Source: Candidatus Hydrothermales bacterium (GTDB taxonomy: Bacteria; Hydrothermota; Hydrothermia; Hydrothermales; JAJRUZ01). From it: a stretch of 64,000 nt of DNA. A program made the translations under genes and the position numbers. Numbering within the stretch: position 1 is the first letter of the stretch; every line of letters begins with the position of its first letter. The DNA is taken from NCBI GenBank assembly GCA_039630235.1, contig JBCNVI010000005.1, positions 37,690 through 101,689 on the forward strand, read 5' to 3'. The notes beneath the pieces are model-generated. The model had not been told where the DNA came from. It did no database searches and saw nothing but the letters and a program-made list of their open reading frames with translations. Shown here piece after piece: positions 1,673-58,510 of the stretch.

Positions 1673-3207
1673 ATAACAAAATTTTTTATACTAAAGAAGA
1701 TCTTAAGAAATACGAATTTTTAGAGGGCGATTTAAAGCCCGGGAAGTATCCATTTACAAGAGCTATCTATGAGGAAATGTACACAAAAAAGCTCTGGACA
1801 ATGAGACAGTACTCTGGATTTGGGACTCCGGAGGAAACAAACGAAAGGTTTAAAAAAATGATAAAGGAGGGACAAACAGGACTATCTCTTGCCTTTGATT
1901 TACCAACTCAACTTGGTCTTGACCCTGACCATACTCTTTCAAAGGGAGAAGTGGGAAGAGTGGGAGTCTCCGTTTGGAGCGTTGATTCAATGAGAAGAGT
2001 TTTAAAAGACATTGAGATTGATAAGATCTCACTTTCTATGACCATAAACGCTACAGCCGGCATTTTGTTAGCCTTTTACTTGGCAATCGCTGAAGAAAGA
2101 GGTATTCCAAAGGATAAACTCAGAGGAACAATTCAAAACGACATTTTAAAGGAATTTGCTGCAAGAGGAAATTATATCTATCCCGTAAAGGAATCTATGA
2201 GACTTAATATCGATGTTATCGAATTTTCACTGAAAAATCTTCCCAATTTTTATCCTATATCAGTAAGTGGATACCACTTTAGAGAAAAGGGAGCAAGTGC
2301 TGTACAAGAGGTTGCCTTTACTATAGCTGATGCTATTGAGTATGTAAAGGGGACTGTTGAAAGAGGAATTGATCCAGATACCATAGGAAGAAGGATAACC
2401 TTCTTTTTTTCTTCCCACAATAATTTCTTTGAGGAAATTGCAAAATTCAGAGCTGCAAGGAGAGTATGGGCTATTATAATGAAGGAAAAGTTCGGAGCAA
2501 AAGATGAAAAGGCAATGCATATGAGATTCCACACCCAGACAGCTGGCTCTACACTGCAGGCACAGTCCCCTATTTTAAATATAATAAGAGTGACTTCTCA
2601 GGCAATGGCTGCTATTTTAGGAGGAACACAGAGCCTTCATACAAACAGTTTCGACGAGGCACTTTCCTTACCGACAGAAGAGTCTGCCTTAATTGCCTTA
2701 AGAACACAACAAATTCTTGCCTATGAAACAGGCATTGCCGAAGTAACAGACCCACTTGGAGGCTCTTTTTATGTAGAGGCTTTAACAAGAAAAATTGAAG
2801 AAGAAGTTTTTTCTCTTTTGAAAGAAATTGAGGAAAGAGGGGGAGCAGCAGAGTGTGTTGAAAAGGGTCTTTTTCAAAAATGGATTGAGGAAAATGCTTA
2901 CTTAGAACAAAAAAGTATAGAAGAAAAAAAGAAGATAATAGTTGGCTTAAATGCCTTCAGATCTGAAAAAGATCAAAAAGTTAAGATATTTAAGATTAAA
3001 AGTAGGGGGGAAAGAGATGAAATGAGAAGGATAAAAGAGTTTAGGAAAAAGAGAGATAAAAAACTTGTAGAGGAAAAATTAGAGATGTTAAAAGAAAAGG
3101 CACAGAGTAAGGAGAATCTCATGGAGGCTATAATAGATTGTGTTAAGGCAAATTGTACGTTAGGAGAAATTTCTTATGAACTTGAAAAGATCTGGAAAAG
3201 GGTCTAA
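1669..3207 (+). CDS. Methylmalonyl-CoA mutase family, catalytic (substrate-binding TIM barrel) subunit without a B12-binding domain
   Basis: 512 aa. The whole length reads as the MCM N-terminal catalytic domain (FTRAIYEEMYTKKLWTMRQYSGFGTPEETNERFK, GQTGLSLAFDLPTQ). No C-terminal cobalamin-binding (DxHxxG) domain is present. Confidence 0.8.
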   Translation: MNNKIFYTKEDLKKYEFLEGDLKPGKYPFTRAIYEEMYTKKLWTMRQYSGFGTPEETNERFKKMIKEGQTGLSLAFDLPTQLGLDPDHTLSKGEVGRVGVSVWSVDSMRRVLKDIEIDKISLSMTINATAGILLAFYLAIAEERGIPKDKLRGTIQNDILKEFAARGNYIYPVKESMRLNIDVIEFSLKNLPNFYPISVSGYHFREKGASAVQEVAFTIADAIEYVKGTVERGIDPDTIGRRITFFFSSHNNFFEEIAKFRAARRVWAIIMKEKFGAKDEKAMHMRFHTQTAGSTLQAQSPILNIIRVTSQAMAAILGGTQSLHTNSFDEALSLPTEESALIALRTQQILAYETGIAEVTDPLGGSFYVEALTRKIEEEVFSLLKEIEERGGAAECVEKGLFQKWIEENAYLEQKSIEEKKKIIVGLNAFRSEKDQKVKIFKIKSRGERDEMRRIKEFRKKRDKKLVEEKLEMLKEKAQSKENLMEAIIDCVKANCTLGEISYELEKIWKRV

Positions 3208-3231
3208 ATCCCTCTAAAGTTTTTCTTAAAA

Positions 3232-4413
3232 ATGAACCAAAAAAAATTTGAAACAATATGTGTTCATACAAAAAAAATAAATTATGAAATTAGGGATATT
3301 TCAACACCCTTACATTTTTCATCAACTTTTTACTTTGAGTCAGCTGAAGAAGGAGGTGAGCTTTTTCTTGGTACTAAAGAAGGATTTATCTACACAAGGC
3401 TCTCAAACCCTACAATAAAAATTCTTGAGGAAACTCTTGCTGAACTTGAGATGGGTGAGAAAGCTCTTGCCTTCTCTTCTGGTATGGGTGCAATATCAGC
3501 TCTAATATTTTCTGTTTTAAAAAGGGGAGACAAAGTAATATACTCAGATCCAGTTTACGGTGGAACCTATTCCCTTTTTAAAAGATTAGAACAAAAGGAA
3601 CTTTTTACCTTTATAGGTATCCCAGCTAGAGATTTTTTAAAAAATTTAAGAAGGGAGATTGACGATAAAACAAAAATTATATATATAGAAACACCTACAA
3701 ATCCCACTTTGGACATCATTGACATAGAGGAAACATCAAAAATTGCCAAAGAGTATAACATTATTTTAGCTGTTGACAATACCTTTGCAACACCCTACCA
3801 TCAAAAACCCTTAAAACTTGGAGCTAATGTCGTAATACACTCTCTCACAAAGTATCTTGGAGGACATACTGATTTAATCGGTGGAGCTCTTGTTGGAGAA
3901 AAGAAGATTATAGATGAAATCGAAAAGGAAGAAAGAGCCCATATCGGAAGTTGTATTTCTCCATTTAATGCATGGCTTGCTTTAAGAGGAATAAAAACCC
4001 TTGCAGTTAGAATGAAAGCACATTCTGATAATGCTCTTTTACTAGCAAAGTTTTTAAGAGAACACCCTAAAGTGGAAAAGGTACTCTATCCTGGGCTTGA
4101 AGACTTTGAAATGCACGAGATAGCTAAAAAACAGATGACTAACGGTTTCTCTGGAATGCTCTCTTTTATTCATAAGAACGGAAAAGAAGGGGCAATAAAG
4201 TTTATCAATTCACTTGAACTTTGTGTAAAAGCAGTAAGTCTTGGAGCAGTTGAAACCTTAATAGAACACCCTGCTTCAATGACACACTCTTCAATGAATG
4301 AGGAGGAACTTTTAAAAGCTGGTATCCATCCAGGTCTTGTTCGAATTTCAGTAGGCATAGAGCATATTGAGGATATAATTAGAGATATAGATAAGGCTTT
4401 AAAAAATTCTTGA
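3232..4413 (+). CDS. PLP-dependent Cys/Met-metabolism enzyme (methionine gamma-lyase / O-acetylhomoserine sulfhydrylase / cystathionine gamma-synthase family)
   Basis: 393 aa. The PLP-lysine motif HSLTKYLGGH is present, with the fold-type I pattern of the CGS/MGL family. Confidence 0.75.
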   Translation: MNQKKFETICVHTKKINYEIRDISTPLHFSSTFYFESAEEGGELFLGTKEGFIYTRLSNPTIKILEETLAELEMGEKALAFSSGMGAISALIFSVLKRGDKVIYSDPVYGGTYSLFKRLEQKELFTFIGIPARDFLKNLRREIDDKTKIIYIETPTNPTLDIIDIEETSKIAKEYNIILAVDNTFATPYHQKPLKLGANVVIHSLTKYLGGHTDLIGGALVGEKKIIDEIEKEERAHIGSCISPFNAWLALRGIKTLAVRMKAHSDNALLLAKFLREHPKVEKVLYPGLEDFEMHEIAKKQMTNGFSGMLSFIHKNGKEGAIKFINSLELCVKAVSLGAVETLIEHPASMTHSSMNEEELLKAGIHPGLVRISVGIEHIEDIIRDIDKALKNS

Positions 4414-8025: not shown

Positions 8026-9479
8026 AAAGTTTTAGTTTACTTTTAATCATTATAACAACCGTTGTTTCTCTTATAGAAATTAGTCTTTTAATTAACCTAA
8101 ACATAAGAATTTTTCTCTTTATTTTTTTCACCTTCATAGGAATCGCATTAATAATTTTAAATTTTTCTATAGGCTTTTTTTATATTCTTACTTATATTTT
8201 TTTAATGCCCTTTTTGAGAAGATTCATTTTGATTTATGAAAAATACGAGCCGATCGAACTTTTGTATCTTGTACCAGATATTCTTACTTTATTCCTGTTT
8301 ACCTATCTTTTTATTTTAAAAATCCAAGAGTTTAAAAAATTACTTTCCTATACTGAATTTAAAATTCTATTTTTTTTACAAGTTCTAATGTTTATACAAA
8401 TCTTTAATCCTATACAGGGTTCTTTATACGCCGGTTTTGGGGGAACAAAATTTTTACTTATTCCTTCTCTTTTTTCTTATTTTGCCTATATGATCGAAAA
8501 CAGTAATTTTAGAAGGATAAGGAATTTTATTATATTTGCAGGTCTTGCTTCACTAGTTTATTCTTACTTTCAATTAAAGTCAAAATTCTTTTTTTTCGAG
8601 AGAAATTGGATTTTAATAGTTAGTAGCGAATATAAACAGGTTCTTGAAATGTTAAGCGGAAATATAAGGCCCTTTTCTTTTTTCTCAAGTATTTCAGAGT
8701 TTGGTCAGTTTATGGGTATTTCTGCTATTGTGAGTCTTTTCTTCATAAAAAATAAATTAAAATATCTACTTACCTTTCTTTTTATAACGGGAATTATCAT
8801 ATCGGGGGTAAGATCTTCAATTTATGCTTTCCTAATTTGTTCCCTATTTCTTATATTTTTTAAAAGAAGCAATAACTTAAAAGATTTCATAAAATTTTCT
8901 ATTATCTCCATAGTTTGCTTTACCATTATTGTATCTGCCATAGATATTCCTTCAACTTATGGCACAAAAACCTATGTAGGAAGATTTTTACAAGGAGTCT
9001 TTGATCCATTAAGGGAGGGTTCTTCAGTTTATCCAAGATTAGAGACCTGGAAGAAAGTAATAATACATGTCTTTACTAAGAATCCCTTTGGAGCCGGTCT
9101 TGGAGTCGCAACGAGAGCCTCTGTGAGACTAGGAGGAATACCTGCAATGCATGACTCAACTTTCTTTGGTATGTTCTCAGCATGTGGAATAGTGGGAGGT
9201 TTTTTACTTATTTATCTTGTCTTATCTATTATTTTTAAAAGTATAAACTCAACAGCTGATATAAAGGAGACTGTGAAATTTCCTTTAATTTTAATACTTT
9301 TTATAAGTATAGGACAACTTTTAACTCAGTACCTGATAGGTGCCCTATTTTGGGGTTCTATTGGAATGTGGATCAGGGGTTTTTATTTTTATAAACACGG
9401 AAAATATAAAGATAATCATTATGAAACAAAAGATAATTCCTGGGGAAAACCTTTAAAAGGGAATCAGCATAAACTTTAA
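7905..9479 (+). CDS. O-antigen ligase/polymerase-like (Wzy_C family) membrane protein, paralog 2. The real start is probably the ATG at 7998.
   Basis: Same motif set as paralog 1 (QIFNPIQGSL..GTKFLLIPSL, RPFSFFSSISEF, RLETWKKVI..NPFGAGLGV). The annotated ORF overlaps paralog 1 by 121 nt; an internal ATG at 7998 reduces the overlap to 28 nt. Confidence 0.55.
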   Translation: MDRFCFNIYGTVVSYILSRCLFLAFNGRFIKMDRFKRRNLESFSLLLIIITTVVSLIEISLLINLNIRIFLFIFFTFIGIALIILNFSIGFFYILTYIFLMPFLRRFILIYEKYEPIELLYLVPDILTLFLFTYLFILKIQEFKKLLSYTEFKILFFLQVLMFIQIFNPIQGSLYAGFGGTKFLLIPSLFSYFAYMIENSNFRRIRNFIIFAGLASLVYSYFQLKSKFFFFERNWILIVSSEYKQVLEMLSGNIRPFSFFSSISEFGQFMGISAIVSLFFIKNKLKYLLTFLFITGIIISGVRSSIYAFLICSLFLIFFKRSNNLKDFIKFSIISIVCFTIIVSAIDIPSTYGTKTYVGRFLQGVFDPLREGSSVYPRLETWKKVIIHVFTKNPFGAGLGVATRASVRLGGIPAMHDSTFFGMFSACGIVGGFLLIYLVLSIIFKSINSTADIKETVKFPLILILFISIGQLLTQYLIGALFWGSIGMWIRGFYFYKHGKYKDNHYETKDNSWGKPLKGNQHKL

Positions 9480-32062: not shown

Positions 32063-32132
32063 TTTTTCTCCTCCATAGAAATCCTATAAGGAGGGGAATT
32101 GAACCCTTTAAGCTAGCTGGCAAACTCTTCTT

Positions 32133-48399: not shown

Positions 48400-50358
48400 A
48401 TGATAATCTTATTATTTTTCATAATAAATATGACGCCAATATCTTTTTGGACAGCTGGTAATTCAAGGTACGTTACTAGTAAGGACACACTTTTATATCT
48501 TATATCCGGTGGAGCAGTCTTAACTTTCCGATTTGGGGCTGGCATTCCTCAATTTAAAAAAGAAATAATAACAGAAGGTTCATTGTTTGATGTTGATTTT
48601 ATAGGTGATACTATTTTTTTAGCAGGAGAGCTTGGCCTAAAAATCTTAAATATTCAAAATCTATCAAATCCAATACTTATCGGAAACTATAGCGCCCAAG
48701 AGATTGTCTCTTATGAAAATCTATATCCCTACGGCTATGGTGTTTCAAGAGGAAAAATTAAAATTTTTAGACTCGATACTTCGCAATTACCTGAAGATCT
48801 ATATACTTATTCGTTGCCTGGATTTGTAAACAAAATTAAAATATATTCCAATTTAGGCTTTGCAATCGCAGGAGATACAATATACATTCTAAATCTTCAA
48901 AATCCTATAAGTCCTCAAATATATAGCAGAGTAAATACAAGAGCTTACGTCAGAGATATTTATAAAAGAAACGATTCTCTTTTTGTATTAGCTGGAGACT
49001 CATTTAAAATTTATAAAATTCAAAATCCTTCTCTTCCACAACGCTTATATAGTTTCAAAATAGTGGGGTTTGGAGAAAGTTTCGAACTTTTCTCAAATAT
49101 TTCTATTATAGCTCTTGGTTTTTCAGGAGTTGGAATTTATAACATAGAAAATGGAATAGAAATAAACCATAATTATTCTTTCTCAAATTGTTTTTCAGTT
49201 AAAAAAATAAGCTCTTATGTATATGCTGCAGACCTTGACCTTGGTCTTATAACTCTTTCATACCCTACTCTCATGGTTCTTGATACCTTTTCAACACCAC
49301 AGTTAACCTACAGAGCGAAGGTTATACAAGATACGATTCTTGTTTTAGCTTCAGGAACAGGCGGTGTTTTCTTTTTAAACATAAAAGATAGAGCAAAACC
49401 TTATTATATAAACTCAATAAATACACCTGGAAGTGCCTTTGATGTGGAGGTGTATAATGATACGATACTTTATGTAGCTGATGGGATTGAGGGACTAAGA
49501 ATTTATAAGATTAAAAATATCCGTTTGCCAGTACAAACTGGGTACACTACTGTAAACGGCTACGTCAAGGCAATATCGCTAAATTATCCCTTTGTTTATA
49601 GTGCAAATGGACCAGGCTATGGTTTTTCAATCCTTCATGTGGGCGATCCAACAAAACCGAGAGAAATAACAAACTTCACAACAACTGGTAATAGTGAAGA
49701 TGTACTTTTTTATCCACCCTTTTATCTTATATTAGCAGATGGTTTTGCTGGAATTAAAGTTTTTAATGTACAGGATACAAAAAATGTTGTGCTTTTAACT
49801 TCTCTTCCAACTTACGGTAGTTCACAATCTTTAAAAGTAAGCGGATATAAGCTTGCTGTTGCCGAGGGTTGGGTAGGAGGTGTCTCATTGTGGGACATAT
49901 CAAATATTTCAAATCCTCAATTTTACAGTAATTTTTCTACACCAGGATTTGCATATGATGTAGAGTTCATTCATCCTGACACACTAGTTGTGGCAGATGG
50001 AACAGGTTATGGACTAAGGAAAATAGATATTTCAAATCCTTATAGTCCAAGTGAGGTTAGTTTTAAAATTATTTTCGGTGACCCAAGAGGCGTCTCTTAT
50101 TCAAACGGTCTTTTATATACATCCCTTGGTTTACTTGGCGTAAGCATAGTGAATCCTCACATTACATTTATAAAAGAAAAAGTTCTCTCACCTATAGATA
50201 GGGAAGAAGAAAAAAAGATAGCACTTTTGTACTTGCCTCCATTCTTAAAAGAAAATTTATTTTTCGATTCCTCTGGTAGAAAACTAAAAATAAAAGCTCG
50301 AGGTACTTATATAATAAAAATCAATGGAAATTATTATAAAATTGTAAATGTAAAGTAA
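48400..50358 (+). CDS. LVIVD-repeat beta-propeller protein with T9SS-type C-terminal sorting domain
   Basis: Signal peptide. Seven or more repeats of about 45 aa, each starting A[GD][DE]..G[LI].[IV][FYW][ND][IV]....P (for example AGELGLKILNIQNLSNP, ADGIEGLRIYKIKN, AEGWVGGVSLWDISNISNP). C-terminal DSSGRKLKIKARGTYIIKINGNYYKIV is a CTD-like tail. Confidence 0.6.
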   Translation: MIILLFFIINMTPISFWTAGNSRYVTSKDTLLYLISGGAVLTFRFGAGIPQFKKEIITEGSLFDVDFIGDTIFLAGELGLKILNIQNLSNPILIGNYSAQEIVSYENLYPYGYGVSRGKIKIFRLDTSQLPEDLYTYSLPGFVNKIKIYSNLGFAIAGDTIYILNLQNPISPQIYSRVNTRAYVRDIYKRNDSLFVLAGDSFKIYKIQNPSLPQRLYSFKIVGFGESFELFSNISIIALGFSGVGIYNIENGIEINHNYSFSNCFSVKKISSYVYAADLDLGLITLSYPTLMVLDTFSTPQLTYRAKVIQDTILVLASGTGGVFFLNIKDRAKPYYINSINTPGSAFDVEVYNDTILYVADGIEGLRIYKIKNIRLPVQTGYTTVNGYVKAISLNYPFVYSANGPGYGFSILHVGDPTKPREITNFTTTGNSEDVLFYPPFYLILADGFAGIKVFNVQDTKNVVLLTSLPTYGSSQSLKVSGYKLAVAEGWVGGVSLWDISNISNPQFYSNFSTPGFAYDVEFIHPDTLVVADGTGYGLRKIDISNPYSPSEVSFKIIFGDPRGVSYSNGLLYTSLGLLGVSIVNPHITFIKEKVLSPIDREEEKKIALLYLPPFLKENLFFDSSGRKLKIKARGTYIIKINGNYYKIVNVK

Positions 50359-50387
50359 GGTTCAAATCCTTAAAAAATTGAAAGACC

Positions 50388-52196
50388 ATGATAAATTTTT
50401 TAATAGTGTCGATAATTCTACTAAATGAAGGATTTGAGGGAGGGAGTCTGCCTTACGGATGGAGGGTAGGAAATGGTGGAAGTCCGCTACGCACATGGAG
50501 AATAGCTCAATATGGCGAGTATTTTCCAGTAGAACCTCCACAACAAGGTAATTACTATATTTTATGTGACACAAATTCTATACTGTATCAAGATACCCTA
50601 TTTACTCCTGGAATTGATGTTCCTACCAGTATTGTAAAACTGAAATTATATTACAACATATCTTTTCTTAAGGATACAATTTCTCTTTCAAGAGGTGACA
50701 TATTAATCAGAACAAAGGCACAGGCAGGTTCATGGACCAGTTGGGTACCAGTTAAAATTTACGGGGGTTCTCCAGTTCCAATATTTGTTAATCAGAGAGA
50801 CTCAGTTGACTTACAGAGTTTTATAAATGCAGATAGTATAAAAATTGCCTTTGCCTATTATAGACTAGCTCAAGATACAGGCTTTTTTATGCTTGACTAC
50901 ATCGTTCTTTCAGCTAAACTTGGTAATGATGTCGGTGCAACTAAGATTATATCTCCTCGTGAATATTTTGAGGCAAATGTGCCTACACCTATTACAATAG
51001 AATTTCAAAATTTCTCAAATAATACTCTAAGTTTTTACGTAAAATGTGAGATAAAAGATAGTTTAACTAGAGTAAGAGTATATAGGGATAGTGGTTATGT
51101 TACAGTAGGTCCCCTTAGAAAAGATACAATCCAGTTATCAAACTTCACAGGTCAAGCAGAAAAAACATACTATGTTTTGGGATGGACAAATTATGCTTTA
51201 GACCCTGATCCTACAAACGATACAGTAAAGGCATATTCAAAAACGAAGCCCTTCTTCGGTGCAATAATAAAAGAAATACCTCTTCCTGGTACTTCTACGG
51301 CTTTTCAGGATATAACTTTTAAAACAGGTGATAATTTGATATTTATTGTTAATCAAGAAAAAGACACAGTTTTTTCTATTGACGATAATGGAAATGTAAT
51401 TTCAAAGTACAAACTTCAAGATTTTTCTCAGGGAACTACAATTGATGTTCCTTTTGGTATCTTTTACGACAAAGAGAGTGGAACTTTCTATACTTCACAG
51501 ATTGGTGTACCTCAGGGTGGTGGATCACCAGTTTGGTGTTATTTAGTTCACTATAGTGCAAACTTCAGTTTAATAGATAGCTTCAATACTCAAGGAAAGG
51601 GGCTTGGAGTGAACATCTTTGCTTTATGTGATGCTCAGGGAGAAAATTTGGGCTTTATGCATAGAGCTATTTATCCTGCAAGATATAGAATATATAAGCT
51701 TAACTTTCTCAATGAGGCTAATCCAAAAGTAGATTCTTTAAATCTTACTCAGCCTCTATACTTTTTAGCCGGAGCTTTAGAAGCATTAAATGATACATTA
51801 TTCATCTCATCTGGAATGGGTTTAACAGAGATAAAGCTCTTTACAAAATCAGGAGTAGTTTTAAAAAGTAAGACTTTTGATGGTGATGTAAGAGGTATTG
51901 CTGTAGAAAGGAGAGTTGTAGGTGAATATATAAATGCCTACGTAAACATAGGCGGAACCAAGCTTTATAAGATTTCAACGGGGTTAAAGTGGTCAAGTAA
52001 TATTTTTGAAAAAGAGAAAGTTCTAATTAATAATGTAATTCCAACTCTTGTGGTAGGCCAAGAAAATCTTCTCAAATACAAAATAAAGAAAGGTTTGATT
52101 GACCTATCAGGAAGGAGAGTAAAAACCTCTGGAGTAAGTAAGATACTGTATATTAAAGATGGAGATAAAAAATTTAAAGTTATTTTACTGAGATAA
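50388..52196 (+). CDS. Secreted protein (602 aa) with T9SS-type C-terminal sorting domain
   Basis: N-terminal signal-like segment; C-terminal LIDLSGRRVKTSGVSKILYIKDGDKKFKVILL fits the CTD pattern. Confidence 0.5.
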   Translation: MINFLIVSIILLNEGFEGGSLPYGWRVGNGGSPLRTWRIAQYGEYFPVEPPQQGNYYILCDTNSILYQDTLFTPGIDVPTSIVKLKLYYNISFLKDTISLSRGDILIRTKAQAGSWTSWVPVKIYGGSPVPIFVNQRDSVDLQSFINADSIKIAFAYYRLAQDTGFFMLDYIVLSAKLGNDVGATKIISPREYFEANVPTPITIEFQNFSNNTLSFYVKCEIKDSLTRVRVYRDSGYVTVGPLRKDTIQLSNFTGQAEKTYYVLGWTNYALDPDPTNDTVKAYSKTKPFFGAIIKEIPLPGTSTAFQDITFKTGDNLIFIVNQEKDTVFSIDDNGNVISKYKLQDFSQGTTIDVPFGIFYDKESGTFYTSQIGVPQGGGSPVWCYLVHYSANFSLIDSFNTQGKGLGVNIFALCDAQGENLGFMHRAIYPARYRIYKLNFLNEANPKVDSLNLTQPLYFLAGALEALNDTLFISSGMGLTEIKLFTKSGVVLKSKTFDGDVRGIAVERRVVGEYINAYVNIGGTKLYKISTGLKWSSNIFEKEKVLINNVIPTLVVGQENLLKYKIKKGLIDLSGRRVKTSGVSKILYIKDGDKKFKVILLR

Positions 52197-53894: not shown

Positions 53895-53960
53895 AAACTT
53901 AACTCCTCCTATTTAATTAATAACACGGGACTTGAACCCTTTTTCATTTTTAAATCTCAT

Positions 53961-56927
53961 TTATTTAATTATAATAATCTTAACCCTTTCCTTTTCAACT
54001 TTATCAACGGGTAAAATGAAATATACTCCCTTTCCATACTTTTTAAGGGTTTTTAACTCTGAACCTGTAAGTTTTCTACCTGTAACATCATAAATATTTA
54101 TTAAAGAGTTATCATCATTTAGTAATTCGTAAGACTTTATGTTTCCTATAAATTTGAATTCAGTATCTTTCTTCATACCAAAAGTATTAAATGTAGACTG
54201 AACGGGAACAAACTCAATAGATGTGTTACTTCTTGGAAGAACATTTCCGCTTCCATAGGCATAAAGATGCGCTATTGCACCATTTGCATCTTCAATTCCA
54301 ACTGCTGTAACATACTCGTCAGTTACACTCTGGTAATTAAATCTTATTGTTCCATTACTATAAAGAATAACCTGAAAAGTTTGTTTGTTATTATTAGAAT
54401 AATTTCTGATTCTATACCATGTAACAGCAAAATAAGAGGGATTTGAAGCGTAAGTTATTTTTGCACCCTGAGTTGTATCAGGTGGATAAAGATCTCTCCA
54501 GTAGGGTGCAATTACAGCATTTGGAGCTGTTGAATTTGGCATCTGTTGAGGAGTATAAGTTGTTGAATTAGATGTAAAGGAAAGCCAGCCGTTACTACAA
54601 ACGTATACTGAATTATAGTTAGAACCAAAGAAAGTAAAATTGAAAGGCAGAGTAAATCTTATCGTTTGATCATCTCCTGTTATTCCTGTAGGTGTAGAAG
54701 TTGTTACCCATGAGTAGCTAACCTGTCTCATGTTGTATCTTGCATTAGCCCCACCTATTCCATGCCTTGCAAAAGCTTGTATTATCTTACTTTCGTTTGC
54801 ACCATTATATAGATCCCTATCTGCTTGGATCATTGCATTTCTTCCAGCTAAGAAATCCTTAGGATAATATGTGTAAGCTCTCCATGTGACTCGATCAGCT
54901 GTTGTCTTATCTGTGTAGGTTCTAAAATCCCATAGCGCTCCGGAATATATTCGAGAGTCATCGTGAACTTCACCTACCCAATGATCAGGATACTTGTAAT
55001 CATTCTGGAGGTTTCTCTGATATTGAGCTGGCATCACCCACTCACCCATAATTGGGTCCCCAAATTGAGTACAGGCCCAGTAATCTGCCCAAGCTTCATT
55101 CATAGCACCAGGCTGATCTCTATATGGTAGTCCACCAGCACTTGCATAAATCTTATCAACAACACCATGATTATACTCATGATAAATCACATCAGCTGAT
55201 CTTGCCATATTCTGTATCTGATAGCTTGGATTACCCCTACCAAAATGCATTGTTCCGTTGTAATAGTAAGCATTAGCACCCTGATAGTTCCTATCTACTG
55301 AATGAGAGTAAACAGTTGCCTGAATCTGATAATCCATTCCTGTAAATCCAAAGTTATTCTTGAAAAAGTCATGAATCTTATTTACGTGATAGAAAACCAT
55401 AACCTCTGTGGTGTGCTTTCCCTCTGTTGTTTCATCAGAAGGATATTTCCATTCCCAGGATACTTCATTTCCGACACTACCCTGCTGAGGAATAAGTCTA
55501 TAAGCGGCATTGTTGGAAGGTGTAGGAACTGTCACTCCAACTGTTCCGCTTTCGTTTTCAATTCCTCTAGTTGTTGTATAATCGTTAGTTATAGACTTAT
55601 ATCTGAATTCAATTATACCATTAGGATATAAAACCACTTGAAAGCTCTGTCTGTTAGCGTTACCGTAATTTTTTATGTTATCCCATGTAACTACAAACTT
55701 ATCTGATCCAGAATAATAGGTAATTGAGCCTCCACCAGCAGCGGGATTAAGGTCTCTCCAGAATGGAGCTATAAGAGCATTAGGAGCATTTGAGTTTGGA
55801 ATTTGAGCAGGAGTATATGCGTTTGAATTGGAAGTAAAACTCATAAATCCATTTGTACATATATATATAGAAGAGTAATTTTTACCATAAAAGGGAAATG
55901 AAAAGGGAAGAGAAAACTGTAATGTTTGATCATCACCTGTTAAACCGGTTGCTGTACTTGTGTTATCCCATGCATAAGTTACACTTTGAACAGTGTAAGT
56001 AACTCCCTGAGAGGTAAAAACAGCTCTTCCAGGTGGATTGTCATCGATAAGAACTTTTACATAGGGACCCTCAAGATAGGCTGTTATGTTCCCTGATGCT
56101 GAACTTGAATAGTATCCACTTGCGTTTGTTGTTGCTGTAGAACTTCCAATATACACATATTGGTTTGCCATAGGATATTTTTGAAGGGCATCTGCTCCAG
56201 TACTTGGAAAACACCAACCGTAAACATAACCTGAAACTGTTTTTAGTTCATTTCTTCTTTCAATTATCAAGCCCTTTATTGCATCAATGTAATAAATAAA
56301 ATCTCCAAGAGGTTCCTCTGAGAAAAACCTTACTTTATAAGTAAGAAGAAGTGAATTCTCATAAGGGTAGTAAACAAGCTCAATTTTTAAATCTTTAGGT
56401 TCACCCCTTAAATTCAAATCTCTGTATATAGTACTTAAAGCTTCTCCCTCTTTAATATTTGGTACTGTAAAGAGGGGAGAACCATCATAGGGGAAGTAGT
56501 AAGAGGAAAGGTAATATATATTTCCTCTTTTATTTACATGGATACCAACAAAGGAATTTTCTACCCTTATACCGTTTATTACTTCTTCAAAAGTTACATG
56601 TGTATAGCCCAGTTCATCCTCTTTAACTTCTAAAAGAGAAAGATTTTTAGGATCTATTCCAAGGAGATAACCTTTTTGACTTAAGAAATTATAGACTTTT
56701 TCTAAAGCATTTTTACCTGGAACAGAAATTTCAAAATTAGAGATTAATCTTGGAAAACCAAAGTCTCCATATAAGATATCAGCCTTTATTCCGAAATCAT
56801 AATAGATATTTTCACTTATAGAAGAGGGAGCATGCTTAGCACAGGGCTTTAGAAGATCTTTGGGAGGTAAATAAATTTTGTTAAAATCCCCGCTGTATAT
56901 AAAGGTAAATATTAAAATTTTAAACAT
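53961..56927 (-). CDS. M36 (fungalysin)-like zinc metalloprotease (988 aa) with N-terminal propeptide-like region, internally duplicated ~80-aa domain, and T9SS-type C-terminal sorting domain
   Basis: HEYNHGV zinc motif (fungalysin HEYTHG-like). Two copies of a ~80-aa module (…TGLTGDDQTLQFSLPFSFPFYGKNYSSIYICTNGFMSFTS… and …TGITGDDQTIRFTLPFNFTFFGSNYNSVYVCSNGWLSFTS…). C-terminal YDVTGRKLTGSELKTLKKYGKGVYFILP. Confidence 0.6.
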   Translation of the reverse strand: MFKILIFTFIYSGDFNKIYLPPKDLLKPCAKHAPSSISENIYYDFGIKADILYGDFGFPRLISNFEISVPGKNALEKVYNFLSQKGYLLGIDPKNLSLLEVKEDELGYTHVTFEEVINGIRVENSFVGIHVNKRGNIYYLSSYYFPYDGSPLFTVPNIKEGEALSTIYRDLNLRGEPKDLKIELVYYPYENSLLLTYKVRFFSEEPLGDFIYYIDAIKGLIIERRNELKTVSGYVYGWCFPSTGADALQKYPMANQYVYIGSSTATTNASGYYSSSASGNITAYLEGPYVKVLIDDNPPGRAVFTSQGVTYTVQSVTYAWDNTSTATGLTGDDQTLQFSLPFSFPFYGKNYSSIYICTNGFMSFTSNSNAYTPAQIPNSNAPNALIAPFWRDLNPAAGGGSITYYSGSDKFVVTWDNIKNYGNANRQSFQVVLYPNGIIEFRYKSITNDYTTTRGIENESGTVGVTVPTPSNNAAYRLIPQQGSVGNEVSWEWKYPSDETTEGKHTTEVMVFYHVNKIHDFFKNNFGFTGMDYQIQATVYSHSVDRNYQGANAYYYNGTMHFGRGNPSYQIQNMARSADVIYHEYNHGVVDKIYASAGGLPYRDQPGAMNEAWADYWACTQFGDPIMGEWVMPAQYQRNLQNDYKYPDHWVGEVHDDSRIYSGALWDFRTYTDKTTADRVTWRAYTYYPKDFLAGRNAMIQADRDLYNGANESKIIQAFARHGIGGANARYNMRQVSYSWVTTSTPTGITGDDQTIRFTLPFNFTFFGSNYNSVYVCSNGWLSFTSNSTTYTPQQMPNSTAPNAVIAPYWRDLYPPDTTQGAKITYASNPSYFAVTWYRIRNYSNNNKQTFQVILYSNGTIRFNYQSVTDEYVTAVGIEDANGAIAHLYAYGSGNVLPRSNTSIEFVPVQSTFNTFGMKKDTEFKFIGNIKSYELLNDDNSLINIYDVTGRKLTGSELKTLKKYGKGVYFILPVDKVEKERVKIIIIK

Positions 56928-56970: not shown

Positions 56971-57516
56971 TCATTTTATCAAATCTATAAAAATACCAAA
57001 GAAGGTGCCAAAGGCGATAGCCAAAGAATAAGGTATATGTAATTTAAAACTTCTTTCTTTATCATAAAAACAACTTCTCTTTGCATAAAGGGAATTAAGA
57101 AAACCTATAAATCCTTCTTTTCCCTCCCTAACTACTCCCCTTAAAACCACTAGAGTGTTCCCCTTTAAAAAAGAATAAATTAAAGATATTAAAAGTCCTG
57201 CAATTGAAGTTAAAAATATAATTAAAAGGATTGATGGGTAAGCTATCCACGATCCAATCCCTGTAATTAATTTAACATCACCTCCTCCGACACCACCTAA
57301 TTGAAAAAAAATATAAAAAAAAGCAAAAGCTATGAAGGCACCAATTAAAGAGTTTACAAAACCTTCAAATTTGTTAAAAATTAAGTTATAAATAAGACCT
57401 GAAAAGAAAAGAGGAAAAGTTATTTTATTAAAAATTTTTCCAAACCTCAAATCTGTGTAGACAGATATGATGGTTGCTAACCCTACAACTTGAAATTTTA
57501 TAAATTCCTGTATCAT
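56971..57516 (-). CDS. Prepilin peptidase, A24 family (TadV/CpaA-like, no methyltransferase domain)
   Basis: 181 aa, 5 TM helices; first Asp in DLRFGKI and second catalytic motif GGGDVKLITG. Confidence 0.8.
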   Translation of the reverse strand: MIQEFIKFQVVGLATIISVYTDLRFGKIFNKITFPLFFSGLIYNLIFNKFEGFVNSLIGAFIAFAFFYIFFQLGGVGGGDVKLITGIGSWIAYPSILLIIFLTSIAGLLISLIYSFLKGNTLVVLRGVVREGKEGFIGFLNSLYAKRSCFYDKERSFKLHIPYSLAIAFGTFFGIFIDLIK

Positions 57517-57686
57517 TCAGGACCTGCCTGAACAGTCATTAGTTTATATCTCATCCATACAATTACCTTATGAACTTCTCTACCTAGAACCCTATAAGCT
57601 GCAAAGGCAAAAAGGGCTATAAGCCCTATTATCATTGCATACTCTACTGCTGTTGCTCCTTTTTCATTATAAATTAATCTTTTCAT
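57513..57686 (-). CDS. flp: Flp-family type IVb pilin (57 aa, not in the ORF track)
   Basis: Own translation: MKRLIYNEKGATAVEYAMIIGLIALFAFAAYRVLGREVHKVIVWMRYKLMTVQAGPE. Flp motif G-ATAV-EY followed by a hydrophobic helix. The stop overlaps the prepilin peptidase ATG (ATGA). Confidence 0.7.
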   Translation of the reverse strand: MKRLIYNEKGATAVEYAMIIGLIALFAFAAYRVLGREVHKVIVWMRYKLMTVQAGPE

Positions 57687-57692
57687 ACCCTT

Positions 57693-57857
57693 TTACCCTC
57701 CTGCTTTTGTTATTTGAATCCACATATTTTCTATAACTTTGTAAGTAACTCTACTAAGTGCTCTATAAGCTGCGAAAGCATAAAGAGAAATTAAACCTAT
57801 AAGGATTGCGTACTCAACGGCTGATGCACCTTTCTCATCAAATATTAACCCTTTCAT
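57693..57857 (-). CDS. flp: Flp-family type IVb pilin (54 aa; the ORF track extends it to a GTG at 57893)
   Basis: MKGLIFDEKGASAVEYAILIGLISLYAFAAYRALSRVTYKVIENMWIQITKAGG, taken from the ATG at 57855-57857. Confidence 0.7.
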   Translation of the reverse strand: MKGLIFDEKGASAVEYAILIGLISLYAFAAYRALSRVTYKVIENMWIQITKAGG

Positions 57858-58027
57858 TCTGGACCTGGGGTTGCCTCCTGCATCTTTCTCCACATCAAGG
57901 ATATTATTCTTTGAACCTGTTTACCTAAGGCTCTATAGGCTGCAAAGGCAAAAAGAGCTATAAGACCTATAATCATCGCATATTCTACTGCAGTAGCTCC
58001 CCTTTGATCTGTTAAAATTTTTCTCAT
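57854..58027 (-). CDS. flp: Flp-family type IVb pilin (57 aa, not in the ORF track)
   Basis: Own translation: MRKILTDQRGATAVEYAMIIGLIALFAFAAYRALGKQVQRIISLMWRKMQEATPGPE. SD aaggag upstream; ATGA overlap with the next pilin. Confidence 0.7.
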   Translation of the reverse strand: MRKILTDQRGATAVEYAMIIGLIALFAFAAYRALGKQVQRIISLMWRKMQEATPGPE

Positions 58028-58046
58028 ATTTTTACTCCTTCTTAAA

Positions 58047-58220
58047 TTAAGGAGGTCCTGGATATATGTAAAAAAACATATTAGTCATTTCATTTATAAT
58101 CTCTTCAACCTTCTTTGCTAGGTAGGAATAAAAAAGAGAAAGTCCTGTTACCCCCATAATAAACCCGTATTCTACACTTGAACCTCCCCTTTGTTCCCTT
58201 AAAAAATCAGAAAATTTCAT
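58047..58220 (-). CDS. Divergent Flp-like pilin (57 aa, not in the ORF track)
   Basis: Own translation: MKFSDFLREQRGGSSVEYGFIMGVTGLSLFYSYLAKKVEEIINEMTNMFFYIYPGPP. It keeps G-x4-EY and the C-terminal PGP motif but has a divergent helix and no SD. Confidence 0.5.
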   Translation of the reverse strand: MKFSDFLREQRGGSSVEYGFIMGVTGLSLFYSYLAKKVEEIINEMTNMFFYIYPGPP

Positions 58221-58293
58221 TTAAAAAAGAGAGCTGAGGGGTTTGAACCCTTTTTTAGATTTAACATGGGTATATCATTAGGCATATTTCCTT

Positions 58294-58464
58294 TTATTCA
58301 GGACCAGCACTTGCCTGTTGCATTTGTCTCCACATTTCACTAATAATCCTTTGAACCTGTTTACCTAGAGCCCTGTAAGCTGCGAAGGCAAAAAGGGCAA
58401 TAAGCCCAATTATCATTGCATACTCTACTGCTGTTGCTCCTCTTTCACATCTTAAAAGTCTCAT
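58294..58464 (-). CDS. flp: Flp-family type IVb pilin (56 aa, not in the ORF track)
   Basis: Own translation: MRLLRCERGATAVEYAMIIGLIALFAFAAYRALGKQVQRIISEMWRQMQQASAGPE. SD aaggagg upstream. Confidence 0.7.
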   Translation of the reverse strand: MRLLRCERGATAVEYAMIIGLIALFAFAAYRALGKQVQRIISEMWRQMQQASAGPE

Positions 58465-58510
58465 TCTTAAACCTCCTTTTTAATTTTAGGGGACTTGGAC
58501 CCCATAAATT

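Follow-up and report, generated by a model that had tools for sequence, protein, structure and literature searches.

Tad (tight adherence) pili are usually treated as homopolymers of a single Flp pilin. In Aggregatibacter actinomycetemcomitans, the tad locus comprises flp-1, flp-2, tadV, rcpCAB and tadZABCDEFG. 'Candidatus Liberibacter asiaticus' carries six consecutive 'Flp family type IVb pilin' genes (flp1-flp5 and flp7) with host-dependent expression (PMC8312247), and Bdellovibrio bacteriovorus has four, flp1-flp4, which are not interchangeable, three of them being individually required; two of these genes lie in the tad operon, and four were called the largest known complement in 2017 (PMC5430801). 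Here we analyse a region of the minus strand (56971-58464) of a 64-kb window, the whole stretch of DNA under study, from an uncultured Candidatus Hydrothermales bacterium. In this region, a tandem array of five putative Flp pilin genes precedes a gene for an A24 prepilin peptidase. The window ends at position 64000, inside the predicted Tad locus.

As in Aggregatibacter, short Flp prepilins with the G/XXXXEY motif are encoded directly upstream of a TadV-type A24 peptidase without methyltransferase domain, and both systems have TadE/F/G pseudopilins with the same cleavage motif as well as RcpC, secretin and TadA/B/C partners. However, there are two flp genes in Aggregatibacter and seven here, and the pilins and tadV, which open the operon in that species, close it in the Hydrothermales locus, where they follow the pseudopilins. 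In addition, TadZ and TadA are fused in relatives of the Hydrothermales locus, and propeller, membrane protein, lipoprotein and protease genes are interleaved. In both Liberibacter and this locus, a single Tad system has five or more Flp genes in tandem (PMC8312247), but Liberibacter is an alphaproteobacterium and the sequences are unrelated; compared with it, three features are described here only for the Hydrothermales clade, namely Flp genes split 2+5 on either side of the pseudopilins, conservation of the A, D and E types and a first array gene flanked by hairpins. The mature N-terminus of the Caulobacter crescentus pilin PilA, ATA(I/V)EY, aligns residue for residue with that of the predicted pilins (8u1k, 8u2b; PMC10710030). 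Its mature length (45 amino acids, aa) compares with 41-47 aa here, neither has a globular domain, and Thr/Ser2, Glu5 and Tyr6 occur in flpA-flpE; in contrast, Caulobacter has a single pilin gene, and Gly occupies position 7 there, whereas Ala does so here except in flpB. Bdellovibrio, with four Flp proteins against seven, is a precedent for non-redundant multi-Flp systems. Five Flp genes in tandem and seven per locus stand at the top of the described range and do not represent a new kind of system, and knowledge of how Flp pilins are made is unchanged by the Hydrothermales locus. The original prediction for this DNA had considered five an unusually large number for a Tad locus; five is indeed the maximum seen in the clade, with three or four in relatives, but the six consecutive genes of Liberibacter exceed it.

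Seven Flp genes arranged 2+5

We are confident that the region forms that end of a complete Tad (type IVc) pilus cluster at which the pilins and the peptidase are encoded, as judged from its sequence and that of syntenic loci. The open reading frame (ORF) listing and the sequence itself contain five uninterrupted ORFs of 54-57 aa on the minus strand and, after them, the ORF of a 181-aa A24 peptidase (56971-57516); two more Flp genes lie upstream. In the order of the minus strand, the seven Flp genes are:

62386-62556, minus strand: flp0a, 56-aa Flp-like prepilin, leader MKKKILLNEGG followed by EAAVEY, C-terminal half hydrophobic/aromatic (NCBI hypothetical protein ABDH49_06175)
62237-62389, minus strand: flp0b, 50-aa Flp prepilin (...EEG/AAAVEY...)
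58294-58464, minus strand: flpA, 56-aa Flp prepilin, 9-aa leader and 47-aa predicted mature form
58047-58220, minus strand: flpB, 57 aa, strongly diverged Flp-like prepilin, no Shine-Dalgarno (SD) sequence
57854-58027, minus strand: flpC, 57-aa Flp prepilin, A-type duplicate
57693-57857, minus strand: flpD, 54-aa Flp prepilin from its ATG, D type, C-terminus KAGG
57513-57686, minus strand: flpE, 57-aa Flp prepilin, E type

The five array genes had been predicted by hand translation, and recomputation returned all of them intact at exactly the same coordinates. Four had been described as invisible to the ORF track, which is explained by its 60-aa threshold; the only array ORF above it is flpD, which reaches 66 aa if read from an upstream GTG. 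The NCBI annotation of the same metagenome-assembled genome (MAG; 125,246-bp contig, locus tags ABDH49_...), however, calls all seven Flp ORFs with identical boundaries and sequences. It names four of them, including flpA and flp0b, 'Flp family type IVb pilin', and flp0a, flpB and flpD 'hypothetical'.

As predicted, all five array peptides contain G-x4-EY followed by a hydrophobic stretch, and four of the five end in the (A/P)GP(E/P) tail, the exception being the KAGG of flpD. The complete Flp motif (Gly, four residues, Glu-Tyr and a hydrophobic stretch after a short basic leader) is present in all seven genes. A six-frame scan for short ORFs with G-x4-E-Y/F and a hydrophobic stretch retrieved only these seven in the 64-kb window, all at this locus, and a repeat search independently placed six of them in a single 71-nt direct-repeat family. 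Such clustering exceeds chance. The locus hence holds seven Flp genes, arranged 2+5, and the count of five that was first proposed holds for the array but had overlooked the upstream pair.

The expected ATGA overlaps link pilin to pilin (flpC stop and flpD start, 57854-57857) and pilin to peptidase (flpE stop and tadV start, 57513-57516), and a further one joins flp0a and flp0b (62386-62389). An AAGGAG(G)-type SD sequence lies 7-9 nt before the ATG of flpA, flpC and flpE (in flpA, AAGGAGG at 8 nt). By contrast, flpD and tadV have no SD at a usable distance, their start depending on the ATGA overlap. The flpB ATG is directly preceded by an in-frame TAA, and its pyrimidine-rich leader contains no purine-rich SD, as originally noted.

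The Pfam Flp_Fap model (PF04964; gathering score 32.2 bits) matched flpC with 33.9 bits, flpE with 31.8 (E 1.3e-7), flpA with 30.1 (E 4e-7) and flpD with 27.1 (E 3.6e-6), so that four of the array peptides, with E-values from 3e-8 to 4e-6, bear out the proposed family. This does not extend to the diverged flpB, which scored 12.7 bits (E 0.11). Comparing flpB with a profile of the other array genes by hhalign gave a probability of 96.8% (E 3e-10, 54 columns); the tie of flpB to the other Flp genes is thus one of profile-profile similarity, motif and context only. In the upstream pair, flp0b matched Flp_Fap with 29.2 bits (E 8e-7), and flp0a, which had no Pfam match, aligned to the flpA-flpE profile with a probability of 96.6% (E 5.6e-10). 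No NCBIfam pilin model matched any of the five array peptides. A search of PDB sequences with the array profile returned as its top two matches the Caulobacter Tad subunits 8u1k (PilA) and 8u2b (Flp), with E-values of only 0.04-0.05. In both, mature residue 1 (ATAIEY...) falls on the residue that follows the conserved Gly (ATAVEY...). From this alignment we predicted basic leaders 9-12 residues long and a mature length of 41-47 aa for all seven genes. Known Tad pilins have 40-60 residues in their mature form and no globular domain (PMC10710030); all seven predicted mature lengths fall within about 40-60 aa, without any C-terminal globular domain. Positions 2, 5 and 6 of the mature form are Thr/Ser, Glu and Tyr in flpA-flpE (ATAVEY, ASAVEY, GSSVEY), and position 2 is Ala in flp0a (EAAVEY) and flp0b (AAAVEY). 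The array is also genetically linked to Tad genes: tadV overlaps flpE, genes for TadE, TadG and another TadE lie upstream, and RcpC, secretin, TadZ-TadA and two T2SSF genes belong to the neighbourhood in syntenic relatives. As predicted from these sequences, the five array genes are real Flp-type pilin genes just upstream of the processing peptidase in an ordinary Tad locus.

It is very unlikely that these small proteins are A24 substrates with a class III signal other than filament subunits, for example membrane-anchored or secreted peptides. Such a role would agree with the failure of flpB and flp0a on the Pfam model, with the lack of flpB relatives outside two genomes and with the hydrophobic C-terminal halves of flp0a and flp0b, which are unlike the polar surface of known Tad pilins. 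Nevertheless, in sequence, length, motif and best structural relatives flpA, flpC, flpD and flpE are Tad filament subunits, and all the genes lie inside a complete Tad assembly locus.

Selection, copy number and pilin types in related loci

We compared the window with related loci from NCBI MAGs and Joint Genome Institute (JGI) metagenomes (designated L001 and following). The syntenic reference for the part of the locus beyond the window was L001/L006, from the MAG Ca. Hydrothermales DT_Bin_18 (79% TadV identity). Ratios of nonsynonymous to synonymous substitution rates (dN/dS) against the L001 orthologs were 0.073 for flp0a, 0.081 for flp0b, 0.051 for flpA, 0.058 for flpB, 0.099 for flpC, 0.036 for flpD and 0.050 for flpE, compared with 0.05-0.15 for the neighbouring genes of the locus. 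All seven, including the SD-less flpB, are therefore maintained under purifying selection. Among the 12 locus genes compared, flpA had the lowest dN and dS (dS 0.31).

The Flp genes were counted as 2+5 in the window and L001, 2+4 in L003, L004 and L005, and 2+3 in L009-L012. The comparison of copy number that had been suggested thus gave tandem arrays of three, four or five genes within the clade. More distant Flp loci retrieved with the same query had 1-2 Flp genes, many of them on short contigs, and a tblastn search of flpA against plasmids had no match. A neighbour-joining tree of the mature parts resolved six classes (0a, 0b, A/C, D, E and B). Each of the eight related loci whose array is complete (L001, L003, L004, L005 and L009-L012) had types A, D and E. 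The extra copies were A-type duplicates that grouped by lineage, flpC of the window (W_C) with that of L001 (L1_C) and L5_1 with L5_2, L3_2 standing alone, which points to repeated duplication or homogenisation. The B type was found only in the window and L001; it was absent from the arrays of L003, L005 and L009-L012, and a search of 5.8 billion clusters and 1.84 billion representatives recovered the L001 ortholog as the sole relative of flpB. Synonymous divergence between paralogs was mostly saturated (dS 2.2 for A-C), with the exception of A-E (0.54), so the duplications are old.

If the extra copies were redundant or decaying duplicates of a single functional pilin gene, without separate roles, the identity of flpC to flpA, the gain and loss of A-type copies between genomes, the missing SD of flpB and a truncated duplicate of the flp0a 5' end in L005 would find a simple explanation. 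We consider this highly improbable: all seven genes are intact, with dN/dS values (0.036-0.099) as low as those of tadV and the pseudopilins; the D and E types, with their type-specific C-terminal halves, occur in every related complete array; and the mostly saturated dS of the paralogs means that the duplicates are old yet have been preserved.

Three paralogs of the array had been described as near-identical. This is accurate for the first 23 residues from the cleavage-site Gly, which are identical in flpA, flpC and flpE, but over their full length these proteins share only 57-84% identity (82-84% for A-C, 64% for A-E and 57% for C-E). The core of the window flpE matches A-type cores at 65-66 of 69 nt, against 60 of 69 for its own ortholog; the corresponding figure of the repeat search was 88% over 106 nt. 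In addition, all four array paralogs of L005 (10001-10808) have Met as the last residue of the core (AAYM), a position taken by Arg or Lys (AAYR/K) elsewhere; this is a clear concerted change, whether through gene conversion or co-adaptation. The N-terminal half thus undergoes concerted evolution. The C-terminal halves stay type-specific across genomes.

Each Tad pilin is a single curved helix; in the Caulobacter filament, the N-terminal Flp motif is packed into the core, and the surface is made up of the polar C-terminal halves (PMC10710030). Given this structure, shared cores together with type-specific C-termini lead us to expect that the subunits should fit one core and show different surfaces, which fits mixed or alternative filaments. 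The original prediction had offered pilin variation or heteropolymeric pili as explanations; the conservation of the paralog types argues against antigenic or phase-type variation and is compatible with heteropolymeric or alternative filaments. An antigenic- or phase-variation system with a single expressed gene and recombining donor cassettes can practically be dismissed, even though the N-terminal cores are almost identical and gene conversion is hinted at (AAYM in four copies of L005, a flpE core nearer to the A type than to its own ortholog), since every copy is a complete gene with start codon and full leader, most having an SD or coupling overlap, rather than a silent cassette without start codon, leader or promoter, the surface halves keep to their type from genome to genome instead of being hypervariable, and no inverted repeats or recombinase genes flanking the array, nor any sign of an invertible switch, were detected by repeat search and domain scans.

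The clade thus offers a natural series of three, four and five tandem genes plus two upstream ones, with near-identical cores and type-conserved surfaces. Such a series lends itself to asking whether the surface properties of Tad filaments can be altered by mixing or swapping.

Expression signals and a model of the pilus locus

Several sequence signals may organise the expression of the locus:

62593-62621, minus strand: sigma-70-like promoter TTGACA-17 nt-TATAAT directly upstream of flp0a, 12/12 match to the consensus
58489-58503, minus strand: T-arm-like mini-hairpin GGGGTCCAAGTCCCC in the 5' leader of flpA
58237-58251, minus strand: T-arm-like mini-hairpin AGGGTTCAAACCCCT followed by a U-rich tract after flpA, candidate attenuator or 3'-end stabiliser
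53927-53939, minus strand: T-arm-like hairpin after the M4/M36 protease gene

The promoter block CCCTTGACA...TATAAT is invariant across four diverged loci, and its flanks vary. Together with the ATGA overlaps, the short intergenic gaps and the conserved hairpins, this promoter constitutes the evidence for an operon. The hairpins have the form GGG(G)TYCAANYCCC(C), with a 7-nt loop like that of the tRNA T-loop. L001, L003/L004 and L005 keep all three positions, and their 20-kb loci contain the motif at no other site. Among loci of the 2+3 type, L010 and L011 (match at the same position) have the hairpin before flpA, and L009 has a degenerate form of it; other copies are shifted. In L003, the hairpin after flpA reads GGGGUUCAAAUCCCCUUUUCUUUUUUUU and resembles an intrinsic terminator. 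As an observation on the window as a whole, the motif GGG-TYCAARY-CCC has five copies outside the lone tRNA gene, against 0.21 expected by chance: 3200-3212(+), 32094-32106(-), 53927-53939(-), 58238-58250(-) and 58490-58502(-). Each copy lies at or just past the 3' end of a gene with the same orientation, and the mini-hairpin may serve as a signal for termination, processing or stabilisation that is specific to the clade. Rfam models matched the window only at tRNA-Gly. A sigma-70-like site at 58535-58508 was considered as flpA promoter and set aside, being located within coding sequence and lacking conservation in L001, L003 and L005.

In each of the seven prepilins, Gly-xxxxEY is followed by two helix segments, a hydrophobic one on the N-terminal side and a short one on the C-terminal side. 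In the model that we favour, transcription would start at the conserved promoter before flp0a and proceed through flp0a, flp0b, the three TadE/TadG pseudopilin genes, the lipoprotein gene, the five-gene array, tadV and probably the M4/M36 protease gene. The TadV-type aspartyl peptidase would cleave the prepilins after Gly, and the mature helices of 41-47 residues would be polymerised by the TadZ-TadA/TadB/TadC/RcpC/secretin machine predicted to be encoded just past the end of the window. We propose flpA as the major subunit because of its strong SD, its slowest dN and dS and the two conserved hairpins that bracket it. These hairpins could let flpA mRNA accumulate or attenuate read-through, uncoupling the level of flpA from that of its neighbours. 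The flpD and flpE products would be conserved, non-redundant co-subunits or alternative subunits, sharing the same filament core and altering the filament surface, with flpC as a probable duplicate of flpA. Its lack of an SD and its position after the hairpin and U-tract suggest that flpB is weakly expressed, possibly as a low-abundance, lineage-specific accessory subunit. The Ala at position 2 and the hydrophobic C-terminal halves of flp0a and flp0b suggest that they act as minor or priming pilins alongside the adjacent pseudopilins.

Several observations weigh against the Tad pilus model or parts of it. Only flpC exceeds the Pfam gathering score (33.9 vs 32.2 bits), and the resemblance of flp0a to the family is confined to the leader and Flp motif. 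The choice of flpA as major pilin draws on rates from a small sample and on position. The hairpins have just 3-5 GC pairs, and their folding is no better than that of shuffled sequence (z about 0), so that the attenuator or stabiliser role is argued from conserved position and sequence, and the promoter-like site directly before flpA is not conserved. Finally, since the window stops short of the end of the locus, TadA/B/C and the secretin are taken from the syntenic loci of relatives.

By analogy with tRNA-like 't-elements', the hairpins around flpA and at the end of the operon could also be RNA processing or stabilising signals that excise a stable monocistronic major-pilin mRNA from a long tad transcript and so set the stoichiometry of a filament obligately built from several conserved Flp types (A, D, E and accessories) instead of a single major pilin, an elaboration that we regard as doubtful.

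Peptidase, neighbouring genes and the Tad machinery

The other genes of the locus in the window are:

60808-62223, minus strand: TadE-like pseudopilin, 471 aa, Pfam TadE 28 bits at residues 7-47, conserved in relatives
59776-60795, minus strand: TadG-like protein, 339 aa, Pfam Tad (PF13400) 31.3 bits
59018-59791, minus strand: TadE-like pseudopilin, 257-aa ORF (L001 ortholog 247 aa), Pfam TadE 36.1 bits
58511-59008, minus strand: putative lipoprotein (..TIGC..), 165 aa, conserved, orthologs in L001, L003 and L005
56971-57516, minus strand: tadV/cpaA-type A24 prepilin peptidase, 181 aa, D22 and GGGD80 (NCBI 'A24 family peptidase')
53961-56927, minus strand: M4/M36 metalloprotease with two NIDO domains, 988 aa, directly downstream of tadV

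The Peptidase_A24 family (PF01478) matched TadV with 71 bits (cutoff 26.5) over residues 13-111 of 181, and the motifs of the catalytic aspartates D22 (YTDLRFGKI) and D80 (GGGDVKL) are conserved in L001, L003 and L005. The protein has no N-terminal methyltransferase or zinc domain and is hence of the TadV/CpaA type. It had no relative among PDB sequences, and an initial metagenome scan with TadV gave no match.

The protease gene begins 43 nt after tadV, and its position is kept in every relative examined (L001, L003, L004 and L005), which suggests that the pairing of pilus and protease is conserved; it is probably co-transcribed with tadV. The poorly known Hydrothermales/WOR-3 lineage can therefore be credited, as predicted from sequence, with a full Tad system to which a metalloprotease of secreted type is linked. 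The protease itself is thermolysin/fungalysin-like, with a weak match to a type IX secretion system (T9SS)-dependent M36 peptidase.

No TadA/B/C or secretin genes are present in the window, which ends at 64000 inside the locus; the set of Tad machinery genes (TadA-family ATPase, two TadB/C proteins, secretin, RcpC/CpaB and TadZ-like) is present in the syntenic L006 and also in L008. The gene order in L001/L006 is secretin, 725-aa TadZ-like+TadA fusion, two T2SSF platform proteins, TPR protein, 426-aa protein, 855-aa beta-propeller, RcpC/CpaB, polytopic membrane protein, flp0a/flp0b, TadE/TadG/TadE, lipoprotein, five flp genes, tadV and M4/M36 protease. TadZ and TadA are normally separate proteins. 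The fusion (L006 4043-6220) combines a MinD/ParA-like (TadZ/CpaE-like) N-terminal domain with a TadA-family ATPase (TIGR03819, 340 bits), and the same fusion, of 721 aa, occurs in L008. Between the platform genes and the pilins (window 62639-64000, minus strand; L001 207-4878) lie conserved genes without assignment to a Tad family: the polytopic membrane protein (440-511 aa as called across loci, no Pfam match), the 855-aa beta-propeller and the 426-aa protein.

Concerning the pseudopilins, the 471-aa TadE-like protein has a C-terminal domain of ~420 residues, rich in Trp, Gly and Tyr and without family match, that could be a tip or adhesin module; typical TadE proteins are far shorter. The 165-aa lipoprotein had no family match, and its single-sequence AlphaFold model was unusable (predicted local distance difference test score, pLDDT, 35.6).

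Two features are particular to L005. An extra 611-aa NIDO-domain protein is inserted before flpA (8114-9949), and the truncated flp0a duplicate (3752-3960), consisting of the leader and Flp motif followed by unrelated sequence, lies ahead of an intact flp0a. Downstream of the locus in the window, two large proteins of 652 and 602 aa are encoded on the opposite strand (48400-52196, plus strand), in a position kept in L003, L004 and L005; they have weak LVIVD-repeat and SdiA-regulated-like matches.

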